From an uncultured Verrucomicrobiae bacterium (GTDB taxonomy: Bacteria; Verrucomicrobiota; Verrucomicrobiia; Chthoniobacterales; UBA10450): DNA of 64,000 nucleotides. The stretch is taken from contig CAVWPA010000003.1 in assembly GCA_963756875.1 (NCBI GenBank), positions 1,248,001-1,312,000 on the forward strand, written 5' to 3'. Of the stretch, positions 34,201 to 40,200 are shown in pieces; positions within the stretch are counted from its first letter, which is position 1, and the number at the start of each line of letters is the position of its first letter. The position numbers are program-made.

Positions 34201-37200
34201 TCCTGCGTGTACCAAAACGAACAATCGTCGGCCGGATCGACGGTCATATCGCTGTAGTCGCCCCAGCGCCCCGAGGTGCTGGTTTGCGAACCGGAGCCAC
34301 TGATGATCGTTTGTTCGCCCTGAGCAAGGCCGCTCCCGGCCGGATCGGTGCCTAACTTTGCGGCATAACGAATCGAAGGGAACACCGTGCTGCTCGATAC
34401 GCTGTAACCCACGGCAATGTCGCCTTGGAAATTCATCGCGCCGCTGCCCATCCAGCGCTGTGCAGTATCGCCCGGCGTGCCCGCCCAGGTCTGTTGCTCC
34501 GCAATCGTGAACGGCGCACTTGGCGATGTGCGGGTCAGTTCATAGAAACGGACGCCCGCGCGGTAAGCCGGATTCGTTGCAGCGTTAACCGTGTGGTTGA
34601 GGATCAATGTTTCGCTTGTGCCGAGGTTGCGGTACGCGAGCCGAAACATCAGCCGGTCGTTGATGGCATCGAGATAACTGCTGCTGCTCACCGAAGGTTC
34701 CGGAATAACATTTCTGGAGTTTGGTACCGTTACTGGATCGAACGCGGCAACCGTCAACGGGCTGCCGGTCCTTTCAACGAACGTCGAATTTGCCGGCGTC
34801 GTGAAATCGACGTGAAAATCGAAGATCCGCAGCCGATCCCCGGGATCGCCGAACTCATTCGCTTCAAAATATGCGAACGGACATGGCGCGCCGACCGGCG
34901 GCGGCGTCAAACCATCCACACACGCCGGTAACATCCCGCCGATGCCGTCCGGGCCGGTGTTGCCGGTTGACGGCGGATAAAGCACGGCCGTGTCGAAGTA
35001 CACGTAACTGGCCGTGGGATCGCCTGCGAGCATCTTCGCTCGGTCGAACGCAAAAACCCCGGCTTGTTCGAATAGGTTACCCGCCTGATTGAACTGGTTA
35101 TCGGTCATGTAGTAACCGTCCGGCCACACGCTTAACTTCGGATAATCGTTAAACTTGATGTTCGGCATCATAAAGTCGTAGAGATAATATGCGCCGGTCG
35201 GGTCGCCTGTTTTCGAAACGGCAATCAGTTGATGATTGTTCGGATTGATGACGCTCACGCAGAACTGGCTGATGATCCAACGATCGGCCAATTGATCGTA
35301 AAGAACGACTGGGTCGCCGTCGTTTGTGGTAGCGCACGGTCCTCCGAGTGGAGCGAACAGGCTGCTCAGCGCCGCCGTGTTGGTGAGCGGACTGCCTGTT
35401 TTGTTCCAGACGCGAAATGTCACGTTGACCGTCTGAACGTAATGGTTCGGGCCGACTGCACCGTTGGTATCGGGCGGCAGATAACCCTGGCCCAGCGAGA
35501 TCGTGTCGGCCTGCGAGGTGCCTTCGAAGCTCACCGCGGGAGTCGGCAAAGCCTGCGGCGTCGCCGCGCTCGCCGTCCCAACTCCCGGCCGAATCCTCTT
35601 CGCGTTGTTTGACGAAACCACTTTGTCCAGGCTGGGCGTGACTTTCGGGTCCACGTGACGAATGATTTCGCGGTTCTCCTCGTTGATTTCCTTCCCAGCT
35701 CCAACCGCACCACCGGCCATCGCGGGCGGCAGTTGATAAACCGACAACGACTCGGTGAACCCGGACGCTCGTACAACAATCGGTTTACCGGGACTCTTGG
35801 TCTGGCCGGTGGCGGACACGATCGTCAGTGCGAAACCGATTGCGCCGAGCAAACTGGCGGCAATTTGGGGGCTTGCTGTCCTGCTGTGGTTCCTGGTTCG
35901 GATAATCGTGGTTTCCAAAAAAGCTAATTCCTGGCGGCTTTTCCCTGACCGGTCCCTGCTGGAGAGCCTCTTACTTGTGCCAAAAAACCGAGTCAAAGTC
36001 GAGCCCAAAATCCTCCCTGTAGAGGCGGCCGTGTCGGCCGCGAAGCAGTTAGGCCGACGACTGCATATATATTAAGAGTACCGGCGGCAGGCGTTGAATA
36101 TTGGACCTTTGCTTCTCTGCTTCTCTGCTTCTCTGCTTTCTCTGTCCTCTGTCCTCTGTCCTCTGTCCTCTGACTTCTGCCGGCCAGCGGCCGTCCGCTA
36201 GCTCCGCGCCGGGGTGCGAAATTTGCGAGGTCGCCGTTGCTGTTGCTGCTGTTGCCGCGGACTTGCCCGCTGTTCATCCGGAATCTTTATCTCGAACGAG
36301 CGGAAAAGGGGCGCCAGATCGATCACCTCGTTGGCGGCGGATCTTAATATGTTGCCGAGATTTTGCGCGACGGACGCCACTTCCACCCGGATGCCGCGCC
36401 GCCGCAGCTTGGTAGCGAGATAAGCGAAATCGGTATCGCCGGTCACAAGAATGACGACATCCGGTTGCATCTCGACAGATAGTTCCAGCGCGTCGATCGC
36501 CATCATCACGTCGACGTTCGCTTTGTAATGACCCTCCTCGGCGGGCGACCCATCTTTGGTGACGGCCATGAATCCGTTAGAACGGAGCCAATGCACAAAC
36601 TTGTTCTTTTTGTCGCGCTCTTCCTGCCAAATCGGTATCGCCGGTGGGAGCCCGGCATACACCACCATCTCGACCAGTTCTCGTCCGGTGCTGGGCCCCG
36701 CCAAAAATTCGCGTAGCTTCAGCCAATCCAGGCCGCGCCCGGCGGTGCGCACGGAGCTGCCAATATTCGATTCATCCACCAGCACCAATAACCTCGGCCG
36801 TGCCGGTTCTTCGTGACTTTTCCCTCGCATGTTTGGCACTGGCTTTATCGCTCGTTCCTAACAACTCTCAACTAAGATTCGTGAATCGAGCGGCTCTCCT
36901 CTGTGGCTGCAGGCGTGCCGCCTGCGCGGTCCGGCCTCTGACCGAAGTTTACCCGCCGTGGCAGGACTTCCGACTTCAGTGCTTAGGCTGCTTTTTTCTT
37001 CGCCGCGACCTTTTTTTCGACGATGATGCCTGGAAATTGCACAACCGGCGCAGGCTCGCTATTCCCATTCTGGCCGAAGGTCGACTCGAACGCGAGCTTG
37101 CCATTGGCGATCTCAGTGAGGGCGATATCGGCATGACCGAGCCCGGGGATATATTCTACTAGCGGGCGATGCCCCAGACAGAGTTGCCGCACGCGGCGTG

Positions 37201-40200
37201 AGACCATGTTCACGAGAATTTGCTGATTGGGAATAATTTCGGAGGCGGCTTTAACGAGATCGGCTTTCATAATTAATAACTGACTTCTGCACGGCACCAA
37301 TATCGCACCGCAGTCGTGTGGCTTTGGCGCGCAGGAGGACATCCCCTGACTTTTAATTTCAGCCTTTCTGCTCTTTACTTCCGAAAAGCCGGTCTAACTA
37401 TCGCCCATAACACGCGATTCACAACCTCGAATCTCACTCCGACATTGAGCGCCTGCTACCGAGGAGTTTCGGACTTGGACGCCCTCACTCCTTCGCTTCC
37501 TGGTTCTTGCTCCCTGCCGTCCGCACCGTCAGCATCAGTCGGCCATACACTCTGCGGCACGTTGCTTTGGCTTGATGATCGCCGCGCTCAAATCTCCGTT
37601 CCGTCGAATGGCTTTGACCAACACGCGTCCAGGTGGTTTCTCTTGCGGCATTCGCTTTTAGAAATCTGGCGATCTCTTTTTCCGAAAGATCTGTACGATC
37701 GAATCGAGAATACCTTTCCAAAACGCTCCGGCGATTGACGAAAACTACAAAATAAAGATACCGGCCCCTGTGATAAAGCACGCTGACGCTTCCGTCGTCG
37801 CGCAAGTGCCGCTCGACAATGTTGCCATAGGACTCCTCAATTCTCTCGTCATTATCGCCCAGATTAGCGCGGACCGAGCTGGCACCGGTCAAAACTATTG
37901 CAAACAGGAGCAGATATCGCTTCATGATGATTCATCCCACAGTTTTCGTTTTCTATCCTCTGACTTTTAGCTCAACCCTTTGCTCTTCGCGCCCTCATAT
38001 TTGTTCTTGTGTGGCGGCGGCGCGCCTCTACGATCATGCCCGCCCGACGCAAACATTTACCGGAGATCATAGCCATGAAAACATCTCAAAAACTTTCGAC
38101 GTTCGCCGGCGGAATCGCCGCGTTCTGTTTATCCGGACTAATGCTGTTCGCAGCGGAACCGACCGAGAACTGCTGGCCGTTCACGGTAGGCAACACGTGG
38201 ACGGTGGAAACCAAGGTCAACGACAAGTCCATTACCCAGGTGCTCACCGTCACAAAAGTGACTCCTGGCGAAGCGGGGGCATCGGACGCCACGATCGAGT
38301 ACAAGGTGGGTGACAACGTTGTCCAGACGGAGATTTACCGGTTCGACGCCAAGGGTATCACGCGCGTAAGCAGTGGAGCCAGTGGCGGGAATACCATTAC
38401 CCCGCCGATTCCAGTGGTGCAATACCCCATGGTGGCGGGCAAGAAATGGAGTTGGAAGGGAACGGTCAAGAGCGGCGATCAGGAAATGCAGGCGACTGCG
38501 GATTTTTCGACCAGCGGCCCCGAATTGCTCAAGCTTGCGTCGGGAGAATTTCAGGCGATGCGCGTCCATTCGAACCTTGTGGTGACACAACCCGGCGGCG
38601 AGAAGGCGGAGTTCCCAAATGACTACTGGTTTGCGCCGGGGGTCGGCATGGTGCAACAGTCGGCGAAGTTTGGCGACATCTTTGTCAAAGGTGAGCTGAC
38701 CAGTTACAAGGTGAAATAAGAAGAGCGCCGGGATCAGGGACTCGTTTTTGCAGATATTGAGTCAACTCGCTCACACCTAATGCGAGCGCGAGCCCGGATC
38801 TTATTTTGCCTCGAGCAACGTGCCGCGGCAATTCGCAGCACCGCAGTGACAGGGGGATTCCTGCTCGATCTCTTCCGTGCGCGGTTCGTCCACCTGCAAG
38901 GCGTAATCGTAAAACAGTTCTTCGCCTGGTTGAATATCGCGCAATGCATGGATGAAAACGCGATCGTTTTCGTCCTCGATCGCTTCGCAGTTCGGCTCGC
39001 AGGAATGGTTGATCCAGCGCGCTTCATTTCCGCCGATCTCCGGGTCGATAACGTGAACGCCATCATCGAGTCCAAACAAAAACGTGTGCGAATCATCGAC
39101 ATCCTTCGGAACGTTTTTCCACAGCACTCGTTTGCCCGTGTATTCAATGATACAGGTATCCTTCGGAATGCGGCGCGTGGCATAGACGCCGAGACCGTGC
39201 ACGCCGGAAGCGCGGACTTCAATGCACGTTAGAGGTCGATCGCTGACTGTTGAGAGCTCGGCTGTTTCAGTAGTCATACTAGTACAGAATTAATCGGAGT
39301 TCGAATGCCAAACGGCCGCCGGATCAGGCTGACGCCATCGCAATCTGCGTATGTAACCGTGAGTTCGGGGCAACGCAAACAGGCCGGTCTTTGGACGACT
39401 CCATGTCGATCCACGATTTAAAGTAATGCTATTTCGCCGGCTTCTTTTTCTTTTTAGCGAGCGCGAGGCGCTCCGTCTTTTTACGGCGTGCCGCGCGTTT
39501 CTTAACGTTGTCTCGGCCTTGGCTGTGTCCCATAAGGCCTTACACTCGCCCACCTGTCGCCCCGTAGCAATGGCACGGGCGGTTCCGCGCTTTCCAAAAC
39601 TTTCGCCCGTAGTGTATCCAGGGCGCGACTTGAGAACTTGACTGCTTTATTCCGCATTCAGTCGGTCCATTTTCCCATCTGCTTCGAGACTAGGTCAGCG
39701 GGCCCAGCGGGCGGACCATGCTTTCCTTCCATCGCTGCCAGCGCGAGCGGCGGGCAAATTCCTCCGGAACGATGCGACGGGAGCTTTCCATGTCTTTCGT
39801 CAATACTCTTTCAAGAACAATCGCCGTCGCCGGATCGCGCACGAGTGCGTTCAGTTCGAAGTTTAACCGCATGGAACGCACATCGAGATTCGCGGATCCT
39901 ACCATCAGCCATTCTTCATCCACGAGCGCGACCTTGGCGTGATTAAAACCCGCCTCGTATTCGTAAATCCTCACACCGTAACGCAACAGCTCCTCGTAAT
40001 ACGAACGTCCGATATTGACCAGCATCGGATGATCCGATTTGCCCGCGACCAGCATTCGCACATCGACGCCGCGTGCCGCGGCCAGCTGCAGCGCCGTTAG
40101 AAGAGGCTCGTTCGGACCGAAATAACCCGCCGTTAGCCAGACCCTGCGCTGCGCCGTGTTCAGCATCCAAACCAGCGACATCTCGATCGGATCGTCGGGA

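Follow-up and report, generated by a model that had tools for sequence, protein, structure and literature searches.

Two genes for omega, the smallest subunit of RNA polymerase (RNAP), are carried by the uncultured Verrucomicrobiae genome studied here. The second of these, rpoZ2, is located within the window, a 64,000-nucleotide stretch of one contig; its distribution among relatives supports a second omega that is conserved and particular to the family. We give about even credence to the explanation that its product, omega-2, is a conditionally made, short-lived alternative omega that is interchangeable on RNAP with the housekeeping omega-1. An alternative RNAP form, as the earlier note suggested, is the best reading of these sequences. 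Features of the locus are collected in Table 1.

Table 1. Features at the rpoZ2 locus, in positions of the window.
Feature	Position	Strand	Basis
rpoZ2, second RNA polymerase omega	36983..37270	-	ORF of 95 aa; profile and fold matches
Three-helix core of omega-2, residues 1-63	37082..37270	-	model helices 3-12, 16-31, 46-55
V-V-Q-F-P arm motif, omega-2 residues 76-80	37031..37045	-	conservation, pN/pS 0.25
Basic C-terminal K-K-K-A-A plus stop, candidate ClpXP-type degron	36983..37000	-	tail conservation
Predicted 5' leader of omega-2	37271..37391	-	no credible Rfam match
Predicted promoter TTGTGA-N16-GATAGT, class common with one RRM paralog	37397..37424	-	inferred from conservation
NYN (LabA/DUF88-type) domain gene, 152 nt downstream of omega-2	36198..36830	-	PF01936, E 8e-27

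A search of the genome with PF01192 returned two omega matches over the cut-off, omega-2 scoring 26.9 against a threshold of 26. The earlier report that it also exceeds the NCBIfam cut-off was confirmed for NF001579 (59.7 vs 58), but against TIGR00690 it scored 18.1, under the cut-off of 23.6. The structure model (pLDDT 78.7; about 90 over residues 1-60) has the three-helix omega fold. In a VIA search the top 14 rows were all small chains of RNA polymerase complexes, the best being 7l7b_E (Z 9.2, rmsd 6.0, 75 aligned) and 8x6g_F (Z 9.0, rmsd 1.8, 59 aligned), where Z around 9 is middling for helical folds; a profile match was found to 6j9e_E (E 5e-8). The two omegas of this genome are identical at 38/71 positions (54%), close to the 52% first given. 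The core of omega-2 is under purifying selection, as for an intact gene (pN/pS 0.30, 35 genes), and is less constrained than that of omega-1 (0.13), with pS near saturation. The second gene stands as described, with a length of 84-101 aa across 116 genes; a 119-aa ORF with an N-terminal extension was rejected because in relatives the frame stays open upstream for only short and variable lengths. By homology, omega-2 would bind beta-prime as part of core RNAP.

At least two omega matches were found in 83 of 121 genomes of this family of soil bacteria (f1), in 44 of its 48 assemblies with 30 contigs or fewer, and elsewhere in the order in only 1 of 135 genomes, which bears out the claim of conservation across the family; these relatives are titled Chthoniobacterales, Spartobacteria or Ca. 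Udaeobacter. The 38 of 121 with fewer than two matches count against our explanation. Trees built on 63-66 columns recovered an omega-1 clade (support 99) and an omega-2 clade (56), and a grouping of the two was not rejected (p-AU 0.55); such trees do not fix the origin of the pair.

The housekeeping gene itself required correction. The omega-1 ORF (contig C2, 95607-95924) encodes 105 aa, not the 71 residues called before, and 105 aa is most likely the true length because 36/36 first copies carry an in-frame N-terminal arm (33-36 aa, with an invariant F) bearing a motif. The case for translation of this arm is strong, and the 71-aa call truncates the housekeeping omega of the family. The motif reads hydrophobic-hydrophobic-x-F-(P), I-L-Q-F-P in this genome; with F-P in 31/36 arms, the statement that first copies have no FP motif does not hold. 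The V-V-Q-F-P of omega-2 is the same motif, placed in a C-terminal rather than an N-terminal arm, and F-P is present in 111 of 116 distinct second copies.

The F-P motif is constrained as strongly as the core and falls in a low-confidence region of both models, where the arms are probably disordered. Both properties would suit a decoy, by which omega-2 stays mostly off RNAP, is short-lived and titrates a binder of the omega-1 F-P arm, either a protease adaptor or a transcription factor. That omega can serve to dock a regulator has a parallel in Rhodobacter, where it recruits GafA, which alters promoter choice (PMC9638019). A pure peptide decoy would have no need of an entire core with invariant helix residues under purifying selection, and we regard this explanation as improbable. 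Genome-wide, no class of F-P-arm proteins emerged: the other matches, 5 of them C-terminal and 10 N-terminal, had no evident common theme.

As the earlier note described, the second copies end in a distinctive tail: K/R-A-A in 110/116 and AA in 113/116, against 0/36 and 5/36 of first copies. The terminal alanines are fixed in 95 and 96 of 97. The distance from the F to the end ranges from 10 to 18 residues, stops and codons vary, and all four Ala codons occur at the A-A end, which on sequence grounds is selected at the protein level. The tail is rich in lysine (pLDDT 44-66), and in omega-1 the basic residues R-S-L-R lie about as far from its own F. Both observations could fit an element of RNAP that contacts nucleic acid or takes part in condensates, instead of a degron; however, the two most fixed positions are the uncharged terminal alanines, and we consider such an element improbable, on a par with the decoy.

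Omega-2 has an unstructured tail with Ala-Ala free at its end, which makes a degron plausible, and the genome's own tmRNA tag closes with L-A-A. The cognate protease subunit ClpP was found in 40/40 of the better family genomes, adjoined by a zinc-domain ClpX in 4/4 loci read; neither was found in the assembly of this genome, which is 87.6% complete. The earlier caveat, that C-terminal AA is common in the genome, was too strong, since just 54 of 2284 proteins have it. The degron reading is nevertheless weakened by ribosomal protein L20, which ends in AA in 27/30 family genomes and in K/R-A-A in 24/30; a conserved K/R-A-A end therefore need not signify regulated degradation, and may be a lineage habit or a generic means of clearing unassembled subunits.

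L20 also lends weight to the possibility that omega-2 is a dosage or back-up duplicate, sitting on RNAP as an assembly latch and doing the job of omega-1 with no regulatory swap. The paralogs are the same at L5, A9, L19, N21, R26-L30, G33, P36, D48, A50, L51, E53, I54 and K58, which also speaks for an exchangeable omega. Furthermore, a second verrucomicrobial family (f9) has an extra omega away from smpB in 14/26 genomes; like omega-2 it is an additional omega apart from smpB, but it arose by an independent duplication in another clade (SH-aLRT 100 in a quick tree), and its tails are variable, none with the F-P...K/R-A-A pattern. Opposed to a simple duplicate are the class-specific fixed residues at positions 2, 8, 20, 22, 25 and 47, the arm at the opposite end, the retention of omega-2 across most genera, and its distinct conserved promoter class. 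We judge this alternative possible but a good deal less probable than an exchangeable omega, and attach a similarly modest likelihood to its corollary that the K-K-A-A end reflects only lineage habit or clearance of an unassembled subunit.

The predicted promoter of omega-2 is of its own class, TTG(T/C)G-N16/17-GATA(C/G)T, common with one RRM RNA-chaperone paralog (RRM-A) and not with omega-1. A matrix trained on omega-2 promoters alone placed 8/10 RRM-A genes above the 99th genome percentile, compared with 0/9 RRM-B and 0/36 omega-1 genes, after 12 of 31 RRM loci uncalled by the pattern had been dropped. A scan for consensus sigma70 promoters did not pick up that of omega-2; omega-1 has a predicted near-consensus sigma70 promoter at the ancestral smpB locus. 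RRM proteins act as cold-shock proteins in Bacteroides (PMC13370968), a different phylum, which weakens the link to cold.

The leader of omega-2 yielded less. No Shine-Dalgarno-like run was seen by eye beside the A/T-rich start. Rfam gave no match to the leaders at gathering score (over 5 loci, a tRNA was the only match) and one chance-level match in the stretch taken from the window. The leader of this genome differs from the commonest hairpin type, for which RNAalifold alone found 6 pairs among omega-2 leaders and a covariance model was built with 14 pairs set by hand (84.7% of cells paired). The model matched only omega-2 leaders in 5/5 genomes and gave no match in this genome. Because none of the 31 RRM loci gave a leader that matched it, a leader RNA common to omega-2 and RRM genes is unsupported beyond the short word G-Y-G-A-T-T-Y (12/19 RRM and 47/114 omega-2 leaders).

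Proximity of omega-2 to an NYN nuclease gene had been put at about half of the loci; we found it in about a quarter (27/97, or 26/116 in the larger set). A module in which the pair couples RNAP to RNA cleavage would fit the same-strand neighbours, 14 upstream and 11 downstream among 116 loci. Adjacency, however, falls to 19/95 where at least 1.5 kb is present on both sides and to none of 20 further loci; 0/26 NYN genes have the omega-2 promoter class, the NYN gene often lies on the same contig 5-80 kb away, and three relatives (G005, G006, G020) have omega-2 without a match to this NYN. The link is weak and such a module very improbable.

The proposed sequence of events for an exchangeable omega is as follows: the bacteria would keep two working omegas, with omega-1 made from its sigma70 promoter with the N-terminal arm, and possibly also in a short form from an invariant internal Met. 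Omega-2 would be transcribed from its own promoter class, probably under particular conditions, for instance cold or another stress, since that class differs and is common with an RNA-chaperone gene. It would sit on beta-prime where omega normally binds and offer the same F-P arm from the C-terminus. ClpXP would then clear it through the free basic A-A end, at least when unbound, and the swap would reverse. As omega-2 has its own promoter and a possible destruction tail, the cell may swap omega under some condition.

A broader role is conceivable, though we think it unlikely: that these bacteria, mostly without ppGpp synthesis, tune RNAP by omega exchange, a stress promoter supplying an omega-2 with a protease handle and with the F-P docking arm moved to the other end. 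That promoter would possibly be read by the single group-2 sigma factor of the genome (contig C1, 41835-42704), and removal of omega-2 by proteolysis from RNAP that has stalled or is in a stress state would reset the enzyme or free it. This would agree with PMC13192885, which reports that RNAP without omega is released more easily. The M-A-R start of E. coli omega is used for ppGpp site 1; neither omega of the pair has it, the starts here being M-K/N and M-T. A RelA/SpoT domain (PF04607) was found in only 2/41 family genomes, and PMC3153485 reports none in PVC bacteria.

Bacterial core RNAP is treated as having a single fixed omega, and the role of omega beyond assembly is an open question. 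Titles and abstract openings in the literature on duplicated rpoZ or verrucomicrobial omega do not describe such a pair. In sequence profile (PF01192, NF001579, TIGR00690), three-helix core and fold, omega-2 resembles bacterial RpoZ; the pair differs from it as two family-wide paralogs per genome, with F-P arms at opposite ends and a basic A-A end on omega-2. Rhodobacter, with GafA, has a single omega, whereas here there are two and the arm partner is hypothetical. The ssrA-type ClpXP degron is a C-terminal A-A left free at the end of a disordered tail (PMC10638403), which omega-2 shares along with the local L-A-A tag; in omega-2, however, lysines precede the A-A instead of a hydrophobic residue, L20 has the same end, and degradation is inferred. 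The family lacks the usual ppGpp system, and its natural pair of omegas, which differ in promoter and in the end that bears the shared arm and of which one has a candidate degron, can be compared directly.

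The stretch encodes a second RNA polymerase omega subunit (omega-2, rpoZ2) that is real and family-wide in UBA10450, as the earlier note had claimed. Its product matched PF01192 (26.9, cut-off 26) and NCBIfam NF001579 (59.7, cut-off 58), and scored below cut-off with TIGR00690. A further omega match in the same genome, the housekeeping omega-1, lies on contig C2 before smpB; the two are identical at 38 of 71 positions. A profile of 35 second copies retrieved omega chains from the PDB (best E 5e-8). In the predicted omega-2 structure, three helices lie within residues 3-55 and the tail is of low confidence. 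The 14 closest structural matches were small chains of RNA polymerase complexes; the highest Z scores, 9.2 and 9.0, are moderate for helical folds.

Coordinates of omega genes and other features (C2 and C3, contigs of the same genome; L, fetched loci)
Feature	Position	Strand	Remark
omega-2	window 36983-37270	-	95 aa
omega-1	C2:95607-95924 (L001:5608-5925)		105-aa ORF
SET-domain protein	window 38801-39277		near omega-2 in 16/97 loci
Large secreted-type protein	window 32757-36008		carboxypeptidase-regulatory-like domain
ORF resembling its continuation	window 31414-32526		possibly a split gene
Short tandem low-complexity repeats	window 36110-36180		downstream of NYN gene; CTTCTCTG / CTCTGTC units
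ClpX-like ATPase	C3:1748194-1749789 (L251:95-1690)		TIGR00382 below cut-off
RRM gene	C3:494569-494868
RRM gene	C3:924418-924774

With the omega-2 profile, at least two omega matches were found in 83 of 121 family genomes. The count was 44 of 48 for assemblies of 30 contigs or fewer, 13 of 18 in the 31-100 range and 26 of 55 above it. Because the two-copy share drops as contig number rises, absent second copies follow assembly fragmentation. Omega-2 is itself present in two or three copies in some genomes (L240-L242 in G092; L171 and L124 on one contig). Titles of named relatives include Chthoniobacterales, Spartobacteria and Ca. Udaeobacter, among others. Some tallies include the unpublished genomes G002, G007 (loci L027, L034, L248), G014 and G535, on which our conclusions do not depend. 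In other families of the order, two omegas occurred in one of 135 genomes (G502, 4% contamination), and in a phylum sample of 300 genomes the sole other family with two copies was f9 (14 of 26 genomes). The f9 second omegas (L184-L211) nest with f9 first copies and have variable tails without the omega-2 pattern, and that duplication was thus independent. Trees on about 65 columns recovered an omega-1 clade at 99 and, weakly, an omega-2 clade at 56, and did not reject duplication at the family base.

The tails were compared in 116 distinct omega genes from fetched loci without smpB, among them the closest 80 of 398 loci, taken without a family check, and 20 chosen so that weak-scoring copies were represented. 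The tail described in the earlier note was borne out: A-A ended 113 of 116 and K/R-A-A 110, with F-P in 111 and hydrophobic-hydrophobic-x-F in 115. One exception has K-K-A-A in another frame, which fits a one-base frameshift. Among 97 of the 116, the terminal alanines draw on all four Ala codons, the stop is any of three codons, and F lies 10 to 18 residues from the end; the free A-A end is therefore selected as protein.

F-P is not exclusive to omega-2. The same note had given omega-1 as 71 residues, a gene call that probably truncates an N-terminal arm: in each of the 36 first copies read, an in-frame ATG lies 33-36 codons 5' of the core Met and an invariant F 14-15 residues ahead of that Met, with F-P in 31 (consensus I-L-Q-F-P). 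The first omega of L027, initially left out by mis-calling, likewise has the arm. Its motif had a pN/pS of 0.17, the core 0.13 and the rest of the arm's start 0.72, rough ratios since pS is near saturation. A promoter predicted by eye, TTGACA-N17-CAnnnT, lies just 5' of the arm's ATG, and the arm is disordered in the predicted structure. As the core Met is invariant, a short form is also possible. G293 (family f4) has a similar arm on its only omega, and perhaps so does G444 (f64); none was evident in the remaining 19 sister-family omega loci. Read from the sequences, both paralogs have an F-P arm and then basic residues, ahead of the core in omega-1 and behind it in omega-2; we infer relocation through tandem duplication.

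Terminal Ala-Ala of ssrA is a ClpX recognition determinant (PMC10638403, in part), and the tmRNA tag of this genome ends L-A-A. ClpP was found in 40 of 40 better family genomes, with a zinc-domain ClpX behind it in the four loci read; neither was found in the present assembly (87.6% complete). Ribosomal L20 (L302-L331) counts against a specific degron on omega-2, since its end is likewise A-A in 27 of 30 family genomes, mostly as K-K-A-A, with K/R-A-A in 24. Of the 2284 proteins that our own gene caller predicted in this genome, 54 end in A-A and two, L20 and omega-2, in K-K-A-A. The genome also encodes a ClpX-like ATPase that lacks the zinc domain, has an I-G-F loop and is extended at the C-terminus; its N-terminal V-A-T-F-P resembles the omega arm, possibly by chance.

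About 80-150 nt upstream of omega-2, the element TTG(T/C)x-N16-GATA(G/A/C)T occurred in 51 of 113 genes by strict pattern, its span fixed at 28 nt in 49 of these; a similar pattern was found in 49 of 113 genes vs 4 of 5650 shuffles. A matrix trained on omega-2 alone scored beyond the 99th percentile of the genome in 84 of the 113 omega-2 genes (a circular result, these being the training set), in 8 of 10 genes of one RRM RNA-chaperone class (RRM-A), and in 0 of 9 RRM-B, 0 of 36 omega-1 and 0 of 26 NYN genes; the RRM counts omit 12 of 31 loci, not called and dropped. Bacteroides RRM proteins are described in part of PMC13370968 as cold-induced RNA chaperones, and a cold link of omega-2 through RRM co-regulation would be a lead only. 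The genome encodes RpoD and one group-2-like sigma, and our guess is that the latter reads these promoters. Many omega-2 leaders contain a hairpin that matched no Rfam family and is not common to RRM leaders. Ten relatives have 3-4 RRM genes (L337-L367) each. In the two RRM classes read, the leader, roughly 130 nt long, is strongly conserved and includes a GATTTGAAA...CGGGAAC stretch common to both, and two loci scanned had no Rfam match.

The proposed association with a NYN (LabA/DUF88-type) nuclease-domain gene held as adjacency in a minority of loci: BLAST placed it at 27 of 97 and a motif search at 26 of 116 (upstream in 14, downstream in 11, opposite in one); of the 95 loci with 1.5 kb or more on each side, 19 had it. 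NYN is present in 81 of 121 family genomes, often tens of kb from omega-2 on the same contig, and a shuffled shared neighbourhood explains the co-occurrence as well as a functional link does.

Several annotated rpoZ genes occur in some alphaproteobacteria, so omega duplication itself may not be new. Our literature search, over titles and abstract beginnings without supplements, found no paper on duplicated rpoZ or this family's omegas; 'Verrucomicrobi', 'paralog' and 'duplicat' are absent from PMC9973325 and 'copies' from PMC7700224, part of PMC13060160 held nothing relevant to omega duplication, and Table S1 in PMC13192885 could be relevant to how omega is distributed. RelA/SpoT domains occur in two of the 41 family genomes searched and, in agreement, are reported absent from PVC bacteria (PMC3153485, in part), which makes it unlikely that omega serves ppGpp here. 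The likeliest mechanism, to which we give about an even chance, is that omega-2 would be a conditionally made, short-lived alternative RNA polymerase subunit. From the parts of the sources consulted, E. coli polymerase without omega is less processive and more easily released (PMC13192885), and Rhodobacter omega is the docking site of a regulator (PMC9638019).
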